The translations under genes and the position numbers were made by a program. From an uncultured Gemmatimonas sp. (GTDB lineage: Bacteria; Gemmatimonadota; Gemmatimonadetes; Gemmatimonadales; GWC2-71-9), in NCBI GenBank assembly GCA_964439025.1, contig CAYTMW010000006.1, positions 21,833 through 85,832 of the forward strand: a stretch of 64,000 nucleotides of DNA. The letters are read 5' to 3'. Positions 21,710-31,936 of this stretch are shown here, one piece after another (the stretch's first letter is position 1; every line of letters begins with the position of its first letter). The notes beneath the pieces are model-generated. The model worked only from the letters and a program-made list of their open reading frames with translations. It had not been told where the DNA came from and made no database searches.

Positions 21710-21961
21710 TGGTCGGGCGCGGAACTGCTCGTAGAGCCGCGCGGGCCGGTCGATCATCGGCACCCGCTCTCTGCGGATGAACCGGTGCCGGACCACGGTG
21801 CGCACGTCGAGCGGGTCGCCGGTGATCACCATGATGTTTGCAACCTTTCCGGGCTCGATGCTGCCGTACCGGTCGGCGATCCACCAGATCTGAGCCGGAT
21901 AGATCGTGAGCGCCCGGAGCGCTTCGTCCGGGTCGAGTCCGTACGCCGTCGCGAGCGCGGC
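21710..21961 (-). pseudogene. C-terminal remnant of an amidohydrolase paralogue
   Basis: ..YGLDPDEALRALTIYPAQ..YGSIEPGKVANIMVITGDPLDV..ARLYEQFRARP parallels the C-terminus of the 11033-12277 product. The N-terminal ~300 aa are missing and there is no stop at the expected position. Confidence 0.65.
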
Positions 21962-21962
21962 G

Positions 21963-22307
21963 TTGTTCCTGGCCCGCGTGCTCACCCACATCCCCGACAC
22001 GAGACAGGGCACGCCGCGGGACTATGGCTGGTACGCCAACCGCCCGCGGGGGATGCGGCGCCATCAGGCCGAGCCGGCCGATGCGACCGCACCCGGCATT
22101 CGGAGTGCCCGCGCGACCGCTCGCGCCCATCGGGCCCGTCGCCGCTGGGCCGAGCTGGTGCGGCAGATCGTCGAGGTGGACCCCTTGGCGTGCCCCCGAT
22201 GCGGGACCCTGATGCGCCTCATCAGCTTCATGGCGGCGCGGGCCGGCATCAATCACATCCTCACGCACCTCCGATCGATGCCGGGTACCAGCTGGCGCAC
22301 TTGGTGA
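21963..22307 (+). mobile_element. 3' fragment of an IS91-family (rolling-circle) transposase gene
   Basis: LFLARVLTHIPD..RDYGWYANRPRG..RRRWAELVRQIVEVDPLACPRCGTLMRLISFM..INHILTHL is the characteristic IS91 transposase C-terminus. No N-terminal part is present. Confidence 0.65.
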
Positions 22308-22316
22308 CGATGGGGA

Positions 22317-24923
22317 TCATTCTCGCGGTGTGGCGGTGAAACGAACCTCGCCAGTGGCACCGTCCATTTCGAGCTCATCGCCGTCCCGGATCAGGGTGGT
22401 GGCGCCGGCGACTCCGACGATGGTCGGAAGTCCCAGTTCGCGGCCCAGGATCGCGGCGTGCGAGAGGACGCTGCCCCGCTCGACGATCAGGCCTCGCGCG
22501 CCCAGCATGAGATAGAGCCAGCCCGGCTCGGTAGCCTCGGCGACCAGGATCTCGTCCTCGATCCGGTCGGTGAGTCGGGGGTTGAGCATGACGCGGGCGC
22601 GGCCGCGCGCGATCCCGGTCGCACAGGGGATCCCGCGCAGCAAGCCCCGCTCGGTGGGCACCAGCTCCGGCGCGCGAGTGGAATGGGGGTAATAGACGGT
22701 GCCGCGACAGACGATGCGGCTCGCCGCTTTGCCGGCGGGGAAGCCGGCGTAGCTAGCCCGCCGCAACGCCACGATGCCATGGAGATCGGCATCCGGCAAG
22801 CCGCCCTCGAACCAGGCTTCGAGCTCCTCGAGGGTGAGATAGAAAACCTCCTCTCGCGCACGGAGCGCCGCCTCCCGGGTGAGTGCGTGGCCGAGGGCGC
22901 CGAAGATCCGTCGCAGCGTGCCGTACGCGCGCGAACGGGCGTGCGAGAGGTTTTCCCGCGCGGCGATGGCCCGCCGCGCTTCCCCGAGGAGCCAGCGGGT
23001 TATGGTCCATGCGATCGGTCGGCCCCGCATCCCGCCGCGCAGCGCGGCTTCCGCCCGTTCCCGCTCCCGCCGGCGCAGAGCGGCGCGCCGCGCCGGATCC
23101 ACGCCGTAGGCGAGGTGATTCCGGAGCAATGCGACCATCTGGGCCGGATCGTCCGCCGGCGTGGTGCTCTCGAGCTTGAGCTCCTCGATGGTGCGATGCC
23201 CGTGCCGGGTGAGATGCTCGCGCACCAGCTCCAGGAATTGCACCGCGTCGGGGTGCTTCGTCAGCTCCGTCCAGACGGCGGCGGCGAGCGTCTCGCTCCG
23301 CAGCAGCGACTCCAATTCGGGGTGGCGCTTCAGCTCGGCGGCGATTGCTTCCAGCGACTCCGCCGAACCGAAACTCTCCACGCCGGTTAGTCCCGACAGC
23401 AGCCCGCGGTCGAAGGGCTTGCCCCCCACGCGGCGGCTCATTCGGGAGAGCCCCTCCAGGAGCAGAAACAGAAAGAGATCGTTCCAGATGAGCGCCGTCC
23501 AGGGCGGCAGCAGCTCCCGCCGGAGCCGCCGGTACTGCTCGAAGAGTTCTGCCGAGGAGAGGCCCTCCAATGTCAGCCCTTCATAGCGCTCCAGGACTTT
23601 CGGCACTGTCGCCCGGAAGCGCCGGACTTCGGCGCGCATGCCGAGGCAGCGCCCGGCGAACCGGACCAGGGTCCGCGTGATGGCCGGCAAGCGCCGCCGG
23701 CCGCCGCGTCGTCCCGCAACCGCCTCCACTCCCTTGCCATCCACGATGCCGAGCGCGCGCTCCCACGGGCCGACGGTGCGTTCCAGTCCTGGCACGAGGG
23801 AGAAGAGCGCGTGATAGTGGGTAAGGTTGAAGTAGAGCCGTCCGCGGACGATCCCCACCAGGTGAGCCAGGTGAGGCCGCGCCGCCTCGACCTCGCGTGA
23901 CGATACGCCGGCCTCCTGCAACGCGAGCCCGAACAACTGCGCGTAGGTGGAGCAGACCAAGGAAAAGGTGAGCGGCAGCGTGACGCCGGGATAGCTTTCG
24001 CCCACGTTGCTGTCGTCCCAGACGGCCAGCTTCCCTCCCGGCAGGCCCGTCGCGGGCCGGGCCTGAAGGAGCCAGAGCTTACCGCGCTCGTCCAGCGTCC
24101 ACTCGAGGTCGAGCGGTCCGCGCATTCGGCGCTGGAGCCGGGCCGCGGCTCGCGCCAGGCGATTGAGCTCTTCGGGCAGCAGCACCGGCACTGCACCCCA
24201 TGGACGAAGAGTCGTCTGCCACTCCCGAGCACCCTCGGGGCGCACGAAACGTTGTGTCTCGCCCCGGCCGCCGACGACAGCGTCCCCGAACCCCGCCGCT
24301 GCTTCGACGATCAGCATCGGCGCCCCAGTGACCGGGTCGGCGGTGAAGGCGACGCCACTGGTGCGGCTCGCGACCAGTCGCTGGACGATCACCGCGACGC
24401 GCGGAAACCCGTCCGCGCCGAAGCGGCGGCGGTAGAGGAGGGCCCGTCCAGAGAAGGCACTCGCCCACACTGCCGCGATCGCCACACCCAGTCCCTCGGG
24501 CGTGACACCGAGCCGGCTCTCCAATTGGCCGGCATGGCTCGCTCCGGCGCCGTCTTCGCCGACCATGCTCGAGCGCACCGCGAAGCGCGCCGCACTGAGT
24601 CGCTCCGCGCCGCGCTGGACCGCCTCGTAAAGCTCGAAGGGCCAGACGACGCCTTCCACCAGGCCGGCGATTGCGCGCGCGGCGCGATCGGCCTCTGCCG
24701 CGTCGGTGGCGGCTCCGGCCAGAGCGGCAATCGCGTCCTGGTGCGGGGCCAGGAGTTGCTCGCAGGTCTCCGCCGTCACCACGAACCACTCGGGGACGGC
24801 GAGTCCCGCTCCGCGCACCGCGGCGAGCGAGGCAGCCTTCTGCCCAATCGACGCCACCGGGACGTGGTCGTCGTGCCAGCGGAGGAAGGGCACGGCCAGC
24901 GGCTCAGCCGAGGTGGAAGCCAT
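22317..24923 (-). CDS. PEP-utilising (PpsA/rifampin-phosphotransferase-like) enzyme: N-terminal ATP-grasp, central domain, C-terminal swivel His domain
   Basis: N-terminal IGQKAASLAAVRGAGLAVPEWFVVT (PPDK_N-like). C-terminal ILVAEATEPGWLYLM..GLIVERGSVLSHAAILGRELGLPTIVG (phosphohistidine swivel). 868 aa. Confidence 0.8.
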   Translation of the reverse strand: MASTSAEPLAVPFLRWHDDHVPVASIGQKAASLAAVRGAGLAVPEWFVVTAETCEQLLAPHQDAIAALAGAATDAAEADRAARAIAGLVEGVVWPFELYEAVQRGAERLSAARFAVRSSMVGEDGAGASHAGQLESRLGVTPEGLGVAIAAVWASAFSGRALLYRRRFGADGFPRVAVIVQRLVASRTSGVAFTADPVTGAPMLIVEAAAGFGDAVVGGRGETQRFVRPEGAREWQTTLRPWGAVPVLLPEELNRLARAAARLQRRMRGPLDLEWTLDERGKLWLLQARPATGLPGGKLAVWDDSNVGESYPGVTLPLTFSLVCSTYAQLFGLALQEAGVSSREVEAARPHLAHLVGIVRGRLYFNLTHYHALFSLVPGLERTVGPWERALGIVDGKGVEAVAGRRGGRRRLPAITRTLVRFAGRCLGMRAEVRRFRATVPKVLERYEGLTLEGLSSAELFEQYRRLRRELLPPWTALIWNDLFLFLLLEGLSRMSRRVGGKPFDRGLLSGLTGVESFGSAESLEAIAAELKRHPELESLLRSETLAAAVWTELTKHPDAVQFLELVREHLTRHGHRTIEELKLESTTPADDPAQMVALLRNHLAYGVDPARRAALRRRERERAEAALRGGMRGRPIAWTITRWLLGEARRAIAARENLSHARSRAYGTLRRIFGALGHALTREAALRAREEVFYLTLEELEAWFEGGLPDADLHGIVALRRASYAGFPAGKAASRIVCRGTVYYPHSTRAPELVPTERGLLRGIPCATGIARGRARVMLNPRLTDRIEDEILVAEATEPGWLYLMLGARGLIVERGSVLSHAAILGRELGLPTIVGVAGATTLIRDGDELEMDGATGEVRFTATPRE

Positions 24924-25806
24924 GACGACTCACCAGTGAAAGGAGCAGTACCCCGTTGAGCGCGCCGGCGAACGCCTCGGCCCAGCGGCGCAGATCGGCG
25001 TGGGCCGCCGTCGGGTGCAGTAGGAGTCGGCCAACCGCAAAGCCCAGCGGGCCCAGCGGAAGCAGCAGGCGCAGGACCGCCACACCCTCGAGGCCGGCGG
25101 CCATCCCCGCCGGAACGAGGCAGCCTACGGTAAGCAGGGCGAACCCCAGCGGGAGCAGCGCCGCGCGGCGCCAGCCGAACTGCTTCGAATAGGTGCCGTA
25201 TTCGGTCTCATCCGCGGGAAGCCGAATTTTTCGCGCAATCTCCCACGCCCCGATTGCGAAGGTCGGCGCGAGCAGCACCGGGATCGTCCACAGCGTCAGC
25301 GCGGCCGCGGGCCAGCGCTCCAGGAACACCACGACCGCATAGCCCCCCAACAGCACGGCCCCGCTCTTCCGGGCGAGGTAGGCCGCCGGCGGCGGATGCC
25401 TGGCCCAGCTCCGCACGAAGAACCAGCGGAAGCCAAGCCAGGTGACAGCGAGGCCGCCAAGCAAGGCGACGAGCATCGGGCCTGGACCGAACGAGCCAGC
25501 CAGCGCAACGAGTAGCAACCCGATACCGACGGCGAGACCGCGCACCTCACCGAGCTCCACCTCGCCGGTCACCAGCGGGCGGTTGCGATAGCGCGGATCT
25601 CCAGCCTTGCCGAGCCGGATGTCCTCGGGTGCGTCGTGCACGTCGTCGAGCAGGCGCACGAACAGCAGCCAGAACGCGATCGTGACCGCTCCGACCGCTC
25701 CGCGGGAGTCGAGCCGGAGCGGCCTCACGCCGGCCAGCGCCTGCAGCGCGAAATAGGAGGTCAGGAAGCCGAGCGCGCCCAGCGCGCCCTGGGTCCAGGG
25801 GAACAT
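24904..25806 (-). CDS. UbiA-superfamily prenyl/phosphoribosyl-transferase-like membrane protein
   Basis: LLDDVHDAPEDIRLG (DDxxDxxxD), RNRPLVTGEV, several TM segments, second acidic patch PADETEYGTYS. Start is uncertain (ATG 25806, GTG 25815, or upstream to 25935). Confidence 0.65.
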   Translation of the reverse strand: MFPWTQGALGALGFLTSYFALQALAGVRPLRLDSRGAVGAVTIAFWLLFVRLLDDVHDAPEDIRLGKAGDPRYRNRPLVTGEVELGEVRGLAVGIGLLLVALAGSFGPGPMLVALLGGLAVTWLGFRWFFVRSWARHPPPAAYLARKSGAVLLGGYAVVVFLERWPAAALTLWTIPVLLAPTFAIGAWEIARKIRLPADETEYGTYSKQFGWRRAALLPLGFALLTVGCLVPAGMAAGLEGVAVLRLLLPLGPLGFAVGRLLLHPTAAHADLRRWAEAFAGALNGVLLLSLVSRHGFHLG

Positions 25807-25838
25807 CGTCCGCACGTAGTGCGCGAGACGAAGCGCGC

Positions 25839-26450
25839 TCAGACCGCGCCGGCCGCCGGCCGACTCCGCCGTTGCCGCCTGGGCCGTGCCGTGCCGAACA
25901 TCACGTCCCACAGCGACGTCGTGAAACCGTAGCATCGCGTGTCATCCCGGTAATGGTGATAGAGATGGTGGCGCCGCCACATCCGCAGCAGCGGTCCCCC
26001 GCCCCGGCCAAAGTGGATCGCATAGTGGATCAGCTCGTAGGCGAGGTAGCCGGCCAGCACTCCCGAGAGGATCGCCGCTGCCGGCGCCCAAGCCCCGGTG
26101 AGGATACGGAGGATGCCCGCTACCAGGGCGGCGAGAGGGAGCGACAACCAGAGCGGAATCACGAAGAAGGCCGGGTCGTTCGGCGCCTGATGATGTGCGA
26201 GATGCTGTTGCCGGCGCAGCAGCCATTCCGCGCGGGGCACCAGATGGAAGAGAAACCGATGCCCCACGTATTCGATCAGGGTCCAGAGGACCAACCCACC
26301 TCCCAGCTCGGCGATCCAGCGCCACCCCGGTACGCTTCCCGCGCGGAGACTCAGCCACAAGGCCACCGCCAAGACCGGCGGGAAGGCGAGCAGGACGCGG
26401 AGGCTCGGGCCCGCCGGCACCTCGCGCACTACCTCGGAAACCGTTCTCAT
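25839..26450 (-). CDS. fatty acid hydroxylase superfamily protein, FA2H/Scs7-like
   Basis: LIEYVGHRFLFH, HLAHHQAPND, YELIHYAIH, WRRHHLYHH, YGFTTSLWDVMFGT. Start at the ATG 26450 gives an ATGA overlap with the desaturase stop. Confidence 0.8.
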   Translation of the reverse strand: MRTVSEVVREVPAGPSLRVLLAFPPVLAVALWLSLRAGSVPGWRWIAELGGGLVLWTLIEYVGHRFLFHLVPRAEWLLRRQQHLAHHQAPNDPAFFVIPLWLSLPLAALVAGILRILTGAWAPAAAILSGVLAGYLAYELIHYAIHFGRGGGPLLRMWRRHHLYHHYRDDTRCYGFTTSLWDVMFGTARPRRQRRSRPAAGAV

Positions 26451-27394
26451 GCTTCCCCCCTTTCCGGTGCCGGTACTCGGCCATGGAAGCCCCGGCGCGC
26501 GGCCTCCCAGATGAACCGCACATAGGAACGGCAGACCGGCGCGCCGGCAGCGCAGAACTCCTCCTGGAGCAGCGCGTGAACGCGCGGCAGGTTGTACCAC
26601 GGCACCGCGGGCAGGAGGTGATGCTCGAGGTGATAGTTCAGGTTGCACATGAGCAAGCTCACCACGCGGTTGCTCGTGATCGTCCGGGTGGCATGCAGCG
26701 GGTGGTCGGAGCTGGTCAGCATGTGCTCCGACCAGCCTCTCACATTCACGATGATCCACGCGACTCCCATCGGCGCCAGCCAGCCGTGCAGCAGCAGGTC
26801 AAGGCGGCCCGCCTCGCGCGCCCAAAGCAGAACTGCGGCGGCGAGCCCGAGGATCGCGGCGTATTCGAGCACCACCTCGCGGCGTTCCCGCGGCGTGCCG
26901 CGGCCAAGCGCCGTGAGGGGGACGTGTCCCAGGAAGATCAGCATGCCGATCGCCGCCCAGACGTAGAAGGCGATCGCCTGCGCCCGGAAACCCTTGAAGT
27001 GATTGGCGAACTCGTCCGGATCCTCGGGCCCACGGTTGTGCCGATGATGCCGCAGATGGGTTACCCGGTACGCGGCGCCGGACACGAGGACCGGGGCACC
27101 GAGCAGAAAGGCCGCCCACCGGTCGCGCCGACGCTCGCGAAACAGGTTGCCGTGGACTGCCTCGTGCATGAGGATTCCCAGTCCGTGGAGCGCGGCACCC
27201 ATGAGGAGGTACGCCGGCAGCCGTACCGGCCAGATCGGCCAATGCGCCACAACCACCCAGGGAACGATCCAGAGCGCGAAGAAGAACAGGATGATCGCGC
27301 TGCGCCGCCGGTCCACACGCTGCAGCGCGCGCAACGCCGCGCGGGTGTCGGGCGCGAGGCTGTTCAGCCAAGCCGCCGTTCCTGTCGCCCTCAT
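26447..27394 (-). CDS. membrane fatty acid / sphingolipid-type desaturase
   Basis: Three histidine boxes: HEAVHGNLF, THLRHHRHN, NYHLEHHLLPAVPWYNLP. Start trimmed to MRATGTAAW, overlapping the GNAT stop. Confidence 0.8.
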   Translation of the reverse strand: MRATGTAAWLNSLAPDTRAALRALQRVDRRRSAIILFFFALWIVPWVVVAHWPIWPVRLPAYLLMGAALHGLGILMHEAVHGNLFRERRRDRWAAFLLGAPVLVSGAAYRVTHLRHHRHNRGPEDPDEFANHFKGFRAQAIAFYVWAAIGMLIFLGHVPLTALGRGTPRERREVVLEYAAILGLAAAVLLWAREAGRLDLLLHGWLAPMGVAWIIVNVRGWSEHMLTSSDHPLHATRTITSNRVVSLLMCNLNYHLEHHLLPAVPWYNLPRVHALLQEEFCAAGAPVCRSYVRFIWEAARRGFHGRVPAPERGEA

Positions 27395-28560
27395 CGGTCG
27401 GCTCCTTCCAGCCGTCTCTCGTACAGTCGGTAGGTCTTGCAGGGCTCGCCGCCGAAGGCGCCGATGACTCGCTGGATCCGGACGTTGTCCGCGAGGACGA
27501 GCGAGAGCTCCACCTCGGCAATGCCGAGGCGCCGGCAGGCTTGCGCGGTTTCCCAGGCGAGCAGTCCCGCTACGCCCTTTCCGCCCTCGCCCGGTTGTAC
27601 GCCGAGCAGGACGAAGCGCGCGGTGGTGAGGCGGGGGATCATGCGGGTGAGGCGCAGCCAGCCGAAGGGCCAGAGGCGGCCGCGGGCAGGCGCGAGAGCG
27701 CGGTTCACATCGGGCAGGGTGAGCCCGAACCCCACCGGAACTCCGTCCCGCTCGGCAAACAACACCAGCTCGGGGCGGATGAAGGGCCGCATCCGGCCCG
27801 CCCGTTCCGCGAACTCCTCTAGGGTCAGGGGCGTGAAGCCCCACACCGATTCGAACGTGGCCGAGTAGAGGGCGAGCGCCGCGGCAACCTCGGAATCCCA
27901 CCGGTGCAGGTCCATTGGGCGGATCTGCACACCGGCAAGCGGTCCCCGGCCGGCCCGCGCCTCGAGCAGCCGCTGCTCGACCTCGGGGCATGGGTCGCGG
28001 AACGCTTCACCACGGAAGGAGTAGTAGTCACGAAATCCGCGGTACCCCGCCGCCACGAGCAGGCCGGGGTACCAGGGAGGATTCCACGGCGAGAGCACCA
28101 TCGGGGGCGAGCCGAAGCCGCTGACGAGAAGCCCCGTCTCATCGTGGAAAGTCAGGTTCACCGGGCCGAGCAGCCGGTGCATCCCTGCGTCCGCGATCGC
28201 CTGCTCCGCCGCCTCCAGGAGCGCGCGAGCGGTGCCGGGATCCTGCTCGCACTCGAAGAAGCCGAAGAGTCCAGTGTCCGGCTCCCAGCGCTCGGCAAAG
28301 CCGCGGTCGATGATCGCGGCGATCCGGCCGACGACTCGCCCGTTCCGGAGCGCCAGGAACCGTTGCACGGAGCGAGTCCGCAGGGAGGGATTGTGCTGCG
28401 GATCCCAGCGCCGCGATTCCTCCCTTCGTAGCGGCGGCACCCAACAGGGATCCCCGCCGTGCAACTGGTAGGGAAGCTCGACAAACGCGCGGTGCGCCTG
28501 GCGTCCTTCCACCGGGATGACCCGGATGGCCGTGGGCGGCGAAGCGATGACCGTCGTCAT
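27391..28560 (-). CDS. GNAT-fold N-acyltransferase (389 aa)
   Basis: N-terminal FVELPYQLHGGDPCWVPPL. C-terminal GNAT core LLGVQPGEGGKGVAGLLAWE..VELSLVLADN. ATGA overlap with the upstream synthase gene. Confidence 0.7.
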   Translation of the reverse strand: MTTVIASPPTAIRVIPVEGRQAHRAFVELPYQLHGGDPCWVPPLRREESRRWDPQHNPSLRTRSVQRFLALRNGRVVGRIAAIIDRGFAERWEPDTGLFGFFECEQDPGTARALLEAAEQAIADAGMHRLLGPVNLTFHDETGLLVSGFGSPPMVLSPWNPPWYPGLLVAAGYRGFRDYYSFRGEAFRDPCPEVEQRLLEARAGRGPLAGVQIRPMDLHRWDSEVAAALALYSATFESVWGFTPLTLEEFAERAGRMRPFIRPELVLFAERDGVPVGFGLTLPDVNRALAPARGRLWPFGWLRLTRMIPRLTTARFVLLGVQPGEGGKGVAGLLAWETAQACRRLGIAEVELSLVLADNVRIQRVIGAFGGEPCKTYRLYERRLEGADR

Positions 28561-29837
28561 GGCCGGGACCAGGTCGCGATCGCCGCGACCCCTTCCGAAA
28601 TGTCACGCGCAGAATGCGCCGCCGTCGCGCAGAGGCGCAGCCGGGCTCGTCCCGCCGGAACGGCGGGATGGGTCACGGCGGTGGCCAGGACACCTGCGGC
28701 GAACAACCGGCGGGCCAGCCGGTAGGCCTCCATTTCAGGCCCAACGAGGAGCGGCACGATCGGCGTCGGCCACTCACAGAGGGGGTGGCCGCTGCGGCGC
28801 AGACCGCTCCTGAGCTGTACCGCGCGGAGGCGCATCCGCTCGAGCCTGAGCGGCTCTCGGCGAATGACGGAAAGCCCCTCGAGCGCCGCGGCGGTCGAGG
28901 CGGGACAGAGCGCCCCGGAGAAGATGTACGGGGCTCCTTCGTGCTGCAGGTAGGTGATCAACCGTGCGCTCCCCGCTACGTACCCACCCTGCGCACCGAG
29001 TGCCTTCGAGAGGGAGCCCGTCCAGACATCCACCTCGCCCGGATCGATTCCGAAGTGCGCTGCGGTGCCCCGGCCGGCTGGCCCGATGGTGCCCAGCGCG
29101 TGCGCCTCGTCCACCAGCAGGAGGGCCCGGTGACGGCGACAGACGGCGAGGATGTCGGGGAGGGGAGCGATGTCGCCCTCCATCGAGTACACCCCGTCCA
29201 CCATCACCAGGCGCCGCGGGGTAGCAGCTTCCTCGGCGAGAGCCCGGTCGAGCGCGGCGGGATCGTTGTGACGGCAGCGGCGCAGGCGTGCCCTGGAGAG
29301 CCGGCCGGCATCCAGCAGGCTGCGGTGCGCCAGCGCGTCGGCGATGATGACGTCACCCGACCCCACCAGCGCCGGGACGACGGCAAGGTTCGCCGCATAG
29401 CCTGAGCCGAGGACCAGTGCGGCCTCGCTCCCGATGAACCGGGCGAGCTCCCGCTCCAGCGCACAGTGCAGCTCGTTGGTGCCGGTAAGCAGACGGACGC
29501 CGCCGCTGCCTGGGCCATAGCGGCGGATGGCCGCGATCGCGGCCTCCTCCACCTCGGGATGACCGATCAGCCCGAGATAGTCATAGGATGAGAGACTGAG
29601 GTAGGGCCGTCCGCGAATGCGGATTCGCGGACCGGTCCGGCCTTCGAGAGGTTGCTGGCAGGTGTAGAGATCCTCCTGGCGGCCGAACCGGAGCAGCCTG
29701 AACCACCGCTCGGCAGCCGGGAGGTCCAAGAGCGCCCGCTCGCATCGTTGGGAGGGCTCCAGCCCACCGAGAACGGTGGACGGGCGCTCTTGCGAATCGG
29801 TCTGCAGCGGAGCCGGCGAGGCCATGGCAATCTCCAT
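28557..29837 (-). CDS. PLP-dependent alpha-oxoamine synthase (serine palmitoyltransferase / AONS / KBL family)
   Basis: SSYDYLGL, GSGYAANL, VDEAHALG, TGSLSKALG (PLP lysine), C-terminal RLRLCATAAHS. Confidence 0.85.
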   Translation of the reverse strand: MEIAMASPAPLQTDSQERPSTVLGGLEPSQRCERALLDLPAAERWFRLLRFGRQEDLYTCQQPLEGRTGPRIRIRGRPYLSLSSYDYLGLIGHPEVEEAAIAAIRRYGPGSGGVRLLTGTNELHCALERELARFIGSEAALVLGSGYAANLAVVPALVGSGDVIIADALAHRSLLDAGRLSRARLRRCRHNDPAALDRALAEEAATPRRLVMVDGVYSMEGDIAPLPDILAVCRRHRALLLVDEAHALGTIGPAGRGTAAHFGIDPGEVDVWTGSLSKALGAQGGYVAGSARLITYLQHEGAPYIFSGALCPASTAAALEGLSVIRREPLRLERMRLRAVQLRSGLRRSGHPLCEWPTPIVPLLVGPEMEAYRLARRLFAAGVLATAVTHPAVPAGRARLRLCATAAHSARDISEGVAAIATWSRP

Positions 29838-30657: not shown

Positions 30658-31170
30658 TTGATGGACTCGAGATCCATCTTGATAACAGACCCCCCTGCGG
30701 CGCCTGCTCCGGGTGAGCGGGATGACTCCCAGTTGGCGTGGAAGTATCTCGGGTGGGCGGGGGTGCTGTTCGCGCTCCTGGGAATCGCGGATCTCGGCAT
30801 TGCGTGGTACCCGGTCCGCTTCGGAACGCCGGAATGGGAGTTCGGCATCGCCACAACGACGATGCAGAATCTTCCATTGACGGTCATGGGGCTGACCCTG
30901 ATGCTCGCCTCGGGGATTTCGCGGGGCCGCCGCGCGGCAACGCTTTGTGCGGCCAGTATCCTGGCGTTTCTGGTCAGCATCGTGATGGTTCTGGGGATCG
31001 TGTTTACCCTCGACGTCCCACTCGCGCTCCAGGCGGTTACGACCGAACCCGCGCGAGACGTGCTTCGCCGAGGGATGCTCAAGACCGGTATCCAGACGGT
31101 GGTCTATTTGCTGATGCTGACACCGCTCGCGGTCATGGGTTTCCGGCATGCCCTGGCACGAAACAGGTAG
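30658..31170 (+). CDS. integral membrane protein (4 TM), function unknown
   Basis: WAGVLFALLGIADLGIAWY, LPLTVMGLTLMLA, CAASILAFLVSIVMVLGIVF, TVVYLLMLTPLAVMGF. Confidence 0.6.
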   Translation: MMDSRSILITDPPAAPAPGERDDSQLAWKYLGWAGVLFALLGIADLGIAWYPVRFGTPEWEFGIATTTMQNLPLTVMGLTLMLASGISRGRRAATLCAASILAFLVSIVMVLGIVFTLDVPLALQAVTTEPARDVLRRGMLKTGIQTVVYLLMLTPLAVMGFRHALARNR

Positions 31171-31189
31171 CTCAACTCACGGGGGAACG

Positions 31190-31936
31190 GTGAACTTTTC
31201 TACTCGAATCTCTCTCGGCGCTGTCCTCGGCATGCTCGCCGTGGCGCAGCCCGCTCAGGCCGCGGCGCCCACCGCCACGTCCTGGGGCATCACCAACTTC
31301 TGCGGTGGGCAGACCTTTGTTTCGTGCGCCACGGTCACGGCCACGGTGACCGGCGGCGTGCTCACCATGGCGGTCACCAACAACGGCGGGAGTTATAACA
31401 GTGCCTGGTTCGGCCGCATCGGATGGTACAACGCCAGCAATGGATCAATCGCCGCCATCGCGAATCCGTGCCCTCAGGGGTCCGCAAGCTGCTACACCAC
31501 CGCATCGGGAATCAGTGGGGGCGTCTGGCAAATTGACAACACACAGAATGATCTCAAATATCTCGGTACGGCGACCCAAGGCGCCACCAAGGTGGGTGGC
31601 GATGGTCTCGACAAGGACGCAACCGTCACCTACCAGTTTCGCCTGACCTCTGGCGCATGGGATCTTTCCAATGCCGTCCTCGGCGTTCACATTCAGGGCG
31701 CGCCGAATTGCTCCAACAAGATGTGGGTCAGGTTCAGTGGAGCGACTCCCCAGAACGTGGACAAGAACGGGAATGTGGATCCCCTGCCGACCGACCAGGC
31801 GATCACCCGAGAATGTGGCGCGTTGGACACCCCGCCCGGCACCACGGTCCCGGAGCCCGCGACGATGGGTCTCCTTGCGCTCGGCCTGGTCGGGATGGCC
31901 GGCGCCCGCGTCATTCGCCGCCGCCGGAAGAGCTGA
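31190..31936 (+). CDS. PEP-CTERM sorting-domain secreted protein
   Basis: GTG at 31190 after GGGGGA. Signal peptide ISLGAVLGMLAVAQPAQA. C-terminal VPEPATMGLLALGLVGMAGARVIRRRRKS (PEP motif + TM + basic tail). Confidence 0.8.
   Translation: MNFSTRISLGAVLGMLAVAQPAQAAAPTATSWGITNFCGGQTFVSCATVTATVTGGVLTMAVTNNGGSYNSAWFGRIGWYNASNGSIAAIANPCPQGSASCYTTASGISGGVWQIDNTQNDLKYLGTATQGATKVGGDGLDKDATVTYQFRLTSGAWDLSNAVLGVHIQGAPNCSNKMWVRFSGATPQNVDKNGNVDPLPTDQAITRECGALDTPPGTTVPEPATMGLLALGLVGMAGARVIRRRRKS

Follow-up and report, generated by a model that had tools for sequence, protein, structure and literature searches.

The 64,000-nucleotide stretch of DNA analyzed here (the window) comes from an uncultured Gemmatimonas sp. 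and encodes, on its minus strand, a dikinase related to rifampin phosphotransferase (RPH), the gene of which directly follows that of a divergent membrane protein of the UbiA superfamily. Our analyses indicate that this pair probably constitutes the core of an undescribed membrane-lipid pathway, with the RPH-type dikinase and the UbiA-type transferase catalyzing neighboring lipid steps. The pair, with the UbiA gene first, is found in bacteria under more than 15 phylum labels (taken from record titles), cultured strains included, and no description of a UbiA gene paired with an RPH-like dikinase was found in the searchable literature, the Lipocone preprint, the FCB-group archaeal-lipid paper and the Caulobacter phosphosphingolipid paper included. 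Once known, the product of the pair would probably represent a lipid class not described before or, failing that, a new route to phosphorylate or activate membrane lipids; the novelty of the route would lie in a dikinase that spends ATP to AMP in place of a kinase of the diacylglycerol kinase (DAGK) type. In the window the two genes are located as follows:

22317..24923, minus strand: RPH-type dikinase, 868 aa, with an N-terminal ATP-grasp domain, a central helical acceptor domain and a C-terminal swivel domain with His822 (basis: Pfam, PDB profile, AlphaFold/Foldseek, residue alignment)
24904..about 25842, minus strand: divergent UbiA-superfamily membrane protein (basis: PF01040, family alignment A2, profile and Foldseek matches)

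The dikinase ATG at 24923 lies 20 nt ahead of the UbiA stop codon, so that the two genes overlap.

Conservation and coupling of the pair

A single dikinase sequence retrieved one distant locus only, and an alignment was used as the query instead. This yielded 80 genome loci with dikinase relatives; counts were made on 84 loci, and all ORFs (open reading frames) in the flanks were clustered. A UbiA-like gene lies within 9 kb of the dikinase gene in 60 of the 84 dikinase-anchored loci and, in at least 47 of the 84, is the immediate upstream neighbor in the same orientation, the spacing being −4 to +30 nt in most cases. For the reverse test, 79 new UbiA-anchored loci were collected with the subclade alignment A3, a set biased toward relatives of the UbiA-like protein of the window, and a dikinase is encoded near the UbiA-like gene in 68 of them. 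At least four of the UbiA-anchored loci without a dikinase come, from the record names, from metagenome-assembled genomes (MAGs) in which a different contig encodes it. A GNAT protein is the third widely conserved partner, present in 46 of the 84 dikinase-anchored and 55 of the 79 UbiA-anchored loci.

The association of the pair with lipid genes that was put forward in the preliminary description extends well beyond the window. The pair does not lie mostly away from such genes in other genomes: at least one lipid-type neighbor family is present in 79 of the 84 dikinase-anchored loci, and also in most UbiA-anchored loci with more than a few kilobases of flank. The tight coupling of the two genes, also described earlier, is borne out by the 20-nt overlap and by the adjacency conserved across loci. 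What has to be given up is the view of the pair as an appendage of a ceramide-like operon. It is instead the common core of a much wider set of cassettes, and all four genes that lie upstream of it in the window accompany it only in a small clade labeled mainly as Gemmatimonadota.

A profile search of 1.84 billion cluster representatives places 1574 members in the UbiA subfamily at an E value of 1e-30 or better. Bacteria of soil, sediment, marine and gut origin carry the pair, and among the cultured carriers are Ignavigranum ruoffiae DSM 15695, Clostridium lacusfryxellense DSM 14205, and strains of Ruegeria, Roseovarius and Rhodovulum. The window itself belongs to a MAG from permafrost, that of an uncultured organism whose relatives occur in soils and sediments; no run classed as RNA turned up in the sequencing-run search. 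The system is split across two contigs in four MAGs (L008/L096, L058/L106, L030/L109 and L012/L118); in an example of such a MAG, one contig encodes an HMG-CoA-reductase (HMGR)-like enzyme, a membrane protein, the dikinase and CarS, and the other a CDP-alcohol transferase, an MMPL protein, a phosphatidylserine (PS) decarboxylase, GNAT and UbiA. In Nocardia spp. (L010, L019, L024, L035), where no UbiA gene accompanies it, a dikinase of the family is clustered with genes for an AMP-ligase, a P450, an oxoamine synthase and a DAGK_cat kinase.

Architecture and catalytic residues of the dikinase

The dikinase matches PPDK_N (E value 5.9e-51, residues 24–293) and the PEP-utilizers swivel domain (E value 5.4e-22, residues 789–858 of 868), with no Pfam match in it to PEP-utilizers_C, the phosphoenolpyruvate (PEP)/pyruvate-binding domain. 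PF27448 (‘Rph_4th’) is assigned, in precomputed Pfam data, to every dikinase homologue, among them P0001 with 91% identity. A PDB search with a profile built from 24 homologues returned the Listeria enzyme RPH-Lm (5HV1, 5FBS) at the top with an E value of about 1e-132, the alignment covering the ATP-grasp domain and the last 380 residues. In Foldseek comparisons of the AlphaFold model (pLDDT 83.8), only RPH-Lm was aligned over about 900 columns (E value 4.9e-38); the matches to PEP synthase and pyruvate, phosphate dikinase were partial only.

The likeness extends to the catalytic residues. Dikinase residues K29, R117, R656/E657 and H822 align with RPH Lys22, Arg117, Arg666/Glu667 and His825, respectively; H822, R656 and E657 are invariant across the dikinase family, and the motif LSHAAILGRELGLPTIVG is present in the window protein. 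In RPH, mutagenesis has shown that Arg117, Arg666 and Glu667 are required for rifampin inactivation, and His825 is the catalytic histidine (PMC4844700). Given the RPH layout and these aligned residues, the dikinase is expected to be an active His-swivel phosphotransferase that converts ATP to AMP and Pi (inorganic phosphate) and phosphorylates an oxygen of a substrate held in its central domain.

It appears extremely improbable that the protein is a conventional PEP synthase or an enzyme of rifamycin resistance, placed beside the UbiA gene by chance. The names in the databases would favor it, as the best NCBIfam models are called ‘phosphoenolpyruvate synthase’ and homologues are annotated as ‘pyruvate, water dikinase’ or ‘rifampicin phosphotransferase’. 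However, the PEP/pyruvate-binding domain is missing and the His domain is C terminal, all NCBIfam equivalogs score below their cut-offs (541 versus 883 for PRK06241, ‘PEP synthase’; 221 versus 999 for NF041857, the RPH model; 206 versus 740 for TIGR01418, PEP synthase), the residue equivalent to the rifampin-contacting Met673 is an invariant Arg, and the linkage to UbiA is conserved across the phylum labels. Both identities were rejected on domain content and cut-off scores. The NF041857 match falls into two stretches, the best of which covers residues 526–860.

The central domain is as conserved as the catalytic domains, with 44 positions at 90% identity or more among 84 sequences drawn from all three cassette types described below, which suggests that the enzymes recognize a common moiety. 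The helix that carries the catalytic R656/E657 has the family-wide motif R-E-x-x-R-x-x-R-x-R-x-(F/Y)-G (window residues 656–668, about 22920–22958). In this motif the family positions R660, R663 and R665 correspond to RPH Lys670, Met673 (the rifampin contact) and Asn675. The fifth motif position, 660, is Ser in all nine window-clade sequences read and Arg in all of the about 125 others read; this R660S replacement (S660 in the window) goes along with a change of accessory genes.

A divergent UbiA-like protein

The UbiA-like ORF, in which the motifs DDVHDAPED and RNRPLVTG are found, reaches 33.3 bits on PF01040, just below the cut-off of 34.2, and 40 of the 44 members of its family match this model, with a best E value of 5.4e-18. 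Single-sequence phmmer searches of the PDB with the UbiA-like protein and with the GNAT protein gave no matches, and profiles were needed. The UbiA-like family profile retrieved digeranylgeranylglyceryl phosphate (DGGGP) synthase (6M31, E value 7e-11) and also chlorophyll synthase and a UbiA homologue. The predicted structure (pLDDT 89.4, pTM 0.87) is matched in Foldseek by DGGGP synthase (DGGGPS), ApUbiA from Aeropyrum (TM 0.70 on the target) and AfUbiA from Archaeoglobus.

With residues counted from ATG 25935 (a 343-aa ORF), R94, D97, D101, D105, E232, R235, K236 and E243 are invariant in family alignment A2. The first Asp-rich motif is kept, with D97, D/E98, D101 and D105 aligning with NDxxDxxxD of 6M31. 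In place of the second DxxxD motif stands E232-x2-R235-K236-x6-E243 (consensus E-I-G-R-K-I-R-A-P-x-x-E), which is acidic at E232 and E243 only; we take this stretch, by its position, to be the counterpart of the canonical second Asp motif. On this sequence evidence the protein is a superfamily member with an altered active site.

Candidate starts are ATG 25935, GTG 25911, CTG 25842, GTG 25815 and ATG 25806. At the junction with the preceding hydroxylase gene, relatives have ATGA (L085 5520–5530), whereas the window (25800–25850) and the 95%-identical L086 (1620–1630) have CTGA, and there is therefore no standard start codon for the UbiA-like protein at the homologous position. A helix formed by residues 33–44, encoded upstream of ATG 25806, is conserved and confidently modeled.

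The identities that the preliminary description had read from the sequence are upheld for both proteins. An RPH-type rather than PEP-synthase-type layout, for which it proposed structure prediction and a comparison with RPH, agrees with the Pfam domains, the PDB profile matches and the Foldseek alignment, in which RPH-Lm spans the model; the UbiA-superfamily assignment agrees with the PF01040 matches of relatives and with the profile and fold matches in the PDB. As to the bounds it gave for the module, 22317–25806, the dikinase end stands, and the UbiA start at ATG 25806 does not, as it probably truncates the conserved N-terminal helix.

A loop insertion, (L/M)(G/A)xAGDPxY, lies between the first Asp motif and the RP..G loop (A3 columns about 80–90) in the window clade and in Planctomycetota and Myxococcota relatives only. 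Two independent fusions join an AMP-binding (ANL) ligase to a full-length UbiA-like domain (P0248, 815 aa; P0381, 855 aa). An apparent UbiA–dikinase fusion, P0285, looks like a frameshifted or cut read-through, so that no fusion of this kind was counted.

The operon in the window and its front-end genes

The pair ends a series of six translationally coupled minus-strand genes, in the order oxoamine synthase, GNAT, desaturase, hydroxylase, UbiA-like protein and dikinase. The four genes ahead of the pair, listed in the direction of the coordinates, are:

25839..26450, minus strand: Scs7p-like fatty acid hydroxylase, 203 aa (Pfam FA_hydroxylase, E value 1.6e-18)
26447..27394, minus strand: membrane fatty acid desaturase or hydroxylase family protein, about 315 aa (Pfam FA_desaturase, E value 1.7e-42)
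27391..28560, minus strand: GNAT-type acyltransferase, 389 aa, probably a tandem GNAT (Pfam Acetyltransf_1, E value 3.9e-08)
28557..29837, minus strand: alpha-oxoamine synthase, 426 aa (Pfam Aminotran_1_2, E value 1.7e-52)

Three junctions are ATGA overlaps, namely hydroxylase/desaturase, desaturase/GNAT (with the desaturase start at 27394 on the GNAT stop) and oxoamine synthase/GNAT. No ketoreductase or CerR-type reductase was found among the genes of the operon in the ORF list and Pfam results.

The PDB matches of the oxoamine synthase include ThAOS (E value 3e-77), serine palmitoyltransferase (SPT; 1e-70), KBL and BioF, in a ranking that does not discriminate among them. The protein also scores below all NCBIfam cut-offs, with the SPT models at 314, 285 and 213 bits versus 640, 500 and 670, and the BioF/KBL models equal or better. 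Because it is about equally close to a broad-specificity AOS, SPT, KBL and BioF, ‘ceramide’ is no more than a plausible label for the lipid of the operon. The sole PDB relative of the hydroxylase is the ceramide fatty acid hydroxylase Scs7p (E value 5.8e-15). The GNAT profile gave weak matches to GNATs, two-domain ones included (the 352-aa 7Q3A, mycothiol synthase), and the GNAT family is large and carries generic names only.

A second lipid cluster of Gemmatimonadota type (L087 1627–11277 and L088 2420–9985) encodes two B12-binding radical SAM (S-adenosylmethionine) enzymes, an oxoamine synthase and a FemAB-like protein, with a desaturase in L087 only. It also contains a GNAT paralogue 55–56% identical to that of the window, followed by a reductase and, in L087 only, by a DAGK_cat lipid kinase. 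The DAGK_cat gene of L087 thus occupies the place held by the UbiA–dikinase pair in the window operon. The bacterial ceramide kinase CpgB has the GGDG motif of the DAGK_cat lipid-kinase group (PMC10331486).

Three accessory gene sets

The genes that accompany the pair fall into three sets:

Type I: HMGR-like enzyme, DUF3419 (BtaA-like) protein, polytopic membrane protein and AMP-ligase; the commonest form
Type II: CarS-like protein, second dikinase paralogue, CDP-alcohol phosphatidyltransferase and PS decarboxylase; common in Firmicutes, and followed gene by gene in Ignavigranum ruoffiae DSM 15695
Type III: oxoamine synthase, desaturase, hydroxylase and usually a downstream FtsX/ABC pump; the window clade (L085, L089, L004, L092, L086), with shorter examples in L002, L005, L091 and L094

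The type I cassette comprises seven genes, encoding the HMGR-like enzyme, UbiA, the dikinase, DUF3419, the membrane protein, GNAT and the AMP-ligase. Relatives of the HMGR-like enzyme are fatty acyl-CoA reductases that produce fatty alcohols (PMC11948995). The 220-aa membrane protein of this cassette compares with CarS at a profile–profile probability of 0.4% and has no PDB match.

The type II operon of I. ruoffiae (L151 3424–12416) encodes, in sequence, a CarS-like protein, dikinase paralogue 2, a CDP-alcohol phosphatidyltransferase, PS decarboxylase, the UbiA-like protein, dikinase 1 and GNAT. In this one fully annotated type II operon, no other kinase type was found among the ORFs of at least 100 aa. 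The second dikinase paralogue forms the outgroup clade of the dikinase tree. A CarS-like protein accompanies the pair in 35 of the 79 UbiA-anchored loci, often also with CDP-alcohol phosphatidyltransferase and PS decarboxylase. Similar two-dikinase lipid operons are present in L057, L132, L138 and L140.

By tblastn with family representatives (E value 1e-4), the 64-kb window yielded no match to the accessory genes of types I and II. In the dikinase tree, the window dikinase groups with those of L004, L002 and L005 in a clade nested among type II and mixed contexts. Each type appears to bring its own source of a primary amine: the oxoamine synthase in the window type, an enzyme resembling SAM-dependent aminocarboxypropyl transferases in type I, and serine addition plus decarboxylation in type II. 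The shared GNAT protein could acylate such an amine. The window version, in which a ceramide-like front end replaces that of the other cassettes, would narrow the possible role of the shared core and points to N-acylated amino lipids as the common theme.

A proposed pathway and its alternatives

The reading that we prefer, tentatively and with somewhat more doubt than confidence, has the lipid made by the operon phosphorylated on a hydroxyl by the dikinase and alkylated by the UbiA-like enzyme, as DGGGP synthase would do; the acceptor, the order of the steps and the donor are those that we infer. ATP would be bound in the ATP-grasp domain of the dikinase. His822 on the swivel domain would take the beta-phosphate, with release of AMP and Pi, and carry it to the central domain, where R656/E657 would position the phosphate for transfer to an oxygen of a hydrophobic acceptor. 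The acceptor would most likely be the primary hydroxyl of an N-acylated amino lipid, produced by the oxoamine synthase and GNAT protein and tailored by the desaturase and hydroxylase, and phosphorylation by the dikinase would give an analogue of ceramide-1-phosphate or phosphatidic acid. In the next step, the UbiA-like enzyme would prenylate or alkylate this phosphorylated lipid with a diphosphate as the donor and, in relatives, the FtsX/ABC pump would export the product. This UbiA-like step is proposed because the first Asp motif, which binds Mg2+ and diphosphate, is kept and because DGGGP synthase is the nearest solved relative. Lipid phosphorylation is preferred as the dikinase step because it explains the type II neighbors that require a lipid phosphate, the resemblance to DGGGPS and the replacement of a DAGK-type kinase. 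DGGGP synthase, the nearest relative of the UbiA-like protein in both sequence and fold, itself has a lipid phosphate acceptor, which we count in favor of the proposal. We count likewise the RPH-type layout with its catalytic residues, the coupling of the two genes, their lipid-gene surroundings and the likeness of the hydroxylase to Scs7p alone.

Several observations weigh against it. No enzyme that would use a lipid phosphate is linked to the dikinase nearly as tightly as the UbiA gene is. The oxoamine synthase is not assignable as serine palmitoyltransferase and, with no ketoreductase in the operon, the lipid may retain a 3-keto group and would have no obvious second hydroxyl for prenylation. 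The non-canonical second motif of the UbiA-like protein means that its chemistry may differ from classical prenyl transfer. Finally, the Arg-rich helix of the dikinase suggests that the acceptor is already anionic, which would fit conversion of a monophosphate to a diphosphate. In such a scheme, which is the main rival and conceivable although we consider it unlikely, the dikinase would phosphorylate a lipid alcohol or, more likely, a lipid monophosphate, and the resulting diphosphate would be the donor of the UbiA-like enzyme, with the ceramide-like lipid as the acceptor. To our knowledge, all characterized UbiA enzymes take a diphosphate-bearing donor, and the first Asp motif is intact here; moreover, the tightest coupling of the dikinase is to the UbiA gene, and R660, R663 and R665 stand beside R656 where RPH has Lys, Met and Asn. 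The commonest cassette has, upstream of the pair, the HMGR-like enzyme with its fatty alcohol-producing relatives (PMC11948995), and the polytopic membrane protein adjoins the pair. Activation of the donor explains the tight coupling and the Arg-rich site better than phosphorylation of the acceptor does, but without a source of the alcohol or monophosphate, as operons of the window type include no reductase or CTP-dependent kinase that would supply either. We also know of no RPH-family member that phosphorylates a phosphate. A saturated alkyl diphosphate would be a poor UbiA donor, ordinary prenyl diphosphates need no salvage, and it is precisely the window clade that has Ser in place of R660.

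The remaining alternatives are considerably less probable. The UbiA superfamily includes decaprenyl-phosphate phosphoribosyltransferase, which uses phosphoribosyl pyrophosphate, and the UbiA-like enzyme might similarly transfer a polar group onto a lipid phosphate made by the dikinase. The basic residues R235 and K236 in the second motif could bind an extra phosphate, and a weak Pribosyltran gene lies near the UbiA-like gene in one relative, L003. We nevertheless judge this quite improbable: the nearest solved relatives in sequence and fold (DGGGPS, chlorophyll synthase, UbiA) transfer prenyl groups, and no conserved phosphoribosyl-related gene lies near the pair in the 84 dikinase-anchored and 79 UbiA-anchored loci. 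DPPR synthase-type proteins are absent from the profile matches of the UbiA-like protein and from its top 50 fold matches, the presence of such a structure in the library being unconfirmed. The transfer of a phosphoribosyl group onto the phosphate, raised in the preliminary description, is left without direct support. Slightly lower still do we place the UbiA-like protein as a terpene synthase or hydrolase that frees a terpenoid alcohol from a prenyl diphosphate, with the dikinase phosphorylating the alcohol for head-group attachment. The gene order (UbiA, then dikinase) and the non-canonical second motif would suit it, UbiA-type terpene synthases are known, and RPH-type enzymes phosphorylate hydroxyls of bulky hydrophobic molecules (PMC4844700). 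Against this, the operon has no requirement for a terpenoid, the GNAT protein and oxoamine synthase would be left without a role, and no conserved terpene-pathway genes lie nearby. We give equally little credence to a dikinase akin to PigC, HapC or PEP synthase that acts on the oxygen of a carbonyl or enol, in this case the 3-keto group, and phosphorylates it to create a leaving group for condensation or elimination, with no lasting phosphate. PigC-type enzymes have the same layout (PMC13534948), the operon lacks a ketoreductase, and the PigC and RedH models match at about 200 bits (207 and 201). These scores lie far under the cut-offs of 1300 and 1350, respectively, and the pair also occurs in cassettes without an oxoamine synthase.

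A broader proposal takes in both phosphorylation of the acceptor and activation of the donor. In it, the dikinase turns a membrane lipid alcohol or monophosphate into the alkyl-donor diphosphate of the UbiA-like enzyme or, in the mirror case, supplies it with a phosphorylated acceptor. The pair, usually with a tandem GNAT, would define undescribed N-acylated, ether- or prenyl-linked phospho-amino lipids of many phyla, in three versions that differ by the route to the amine, and the Gemmatimonadota product would be a prenylated ceramide-like outer-membrane lipid. We regard it as doubtful that this proposal will hold in full.

Relation to known systems

RPH-Lm (5FBS/5FBT/5FBU, 5HV1) is the sole solved structure that spans the whole dikinase model, and it shares with the dikinase the domain order, the catalytic His, the Arg/Glu pair and the ATP-phosphate contacts. 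The two differ in sequence, with an identity of about 20% and with stretch 317–507 of the 891-position family profile left unaligned by HMMER, and in the acceptor site, where Met673 is replaced by the invariant Arg of an Arg-rich helix. A further difference is the genetic setting of the window enzyme, with a lipid operon around its gene and coupling to the gene of a membrane transferase. The UbiA-like protein has the polytopic helical fold of DGGGP synthase and the UbiA prenyltransferases (6M31/7BPU, 4OD4, 4TQ3), and its (N/D)DxxDxxxD motif and RP..G loop align with theirs, but the identities are 14–18%, the second motif is altered and the window clade has the AGDPxY loop insertion.

If the preferred model is right, the pathway would resemble the ceramide phosphoglycerate pathway of Caulobacter CpgB in starting the head group with phosphorylation of a lipid of the ceramide type (PMC11324152, PMC10331486). 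However, CpgB belongs with hCERK and YegS to the GGDG lipid-kinase group and transfers the ATP gamma-phosphate directly, whereas the window enzyme is a His-swivel dikinase expected to release AMP and Pi; in addition, no CpgA or CpgC homologues were seen, the partner here being the UbiA-like protein. The Spt–bCerS–CerR pathway likewise has an oxoamine synthase gene followed by an acyltransferase gene, joined in the window operon by an ATGA overlap, and the Scs7-like hydroxylase adds to the likeness; the window operon departs from that pathway in the SPT models, which score below their cut-offs, and in lacking a CerR-type reductase. With the type I seven-gene cassette the window shares the UbiA–dikinase pair, the GNAT protein and a dikinase placed in the same tree, whereas the oxoamine synthase, desaturase and hydroxylase, together with the R660S replacement, set the window clade apart. 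In plant phytol salvage, the kinases VTE5 and VTE6 act ahead of the UbiA-type enzyme VTE2 or chlorophyll synthase. Kinases there feed a diphosphate donor to a UbiA enzyme, as the dikinase would if it activated the donor; they belong to different families, and no such kinase pair is present in the window.

Flanks of the operon

An FtsX/ABC pump is encoded downstream of the dikinase in L085, L089, L004, L002 and L091, and the start of an FtsX gene lies at the contig end of L094; pump genes are absent from the whole window. Homology to the 95%-identical contig L086 stops at window position 22304, 13 nt past the dikinase stop. A plus-strand ORF that ends at 22307 (window 21906–22316) has a weak match (E value 0.003) to the C terminus of the Y2_Tnp (IS91-type) transposase. 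At the other end, just upstream of the operon promoter region, 31148–31936 on the plus strand encodes a secreted protein that ends in a PEP-CTERM tail (VPEP, then a transmembrane segment and RRRRK).

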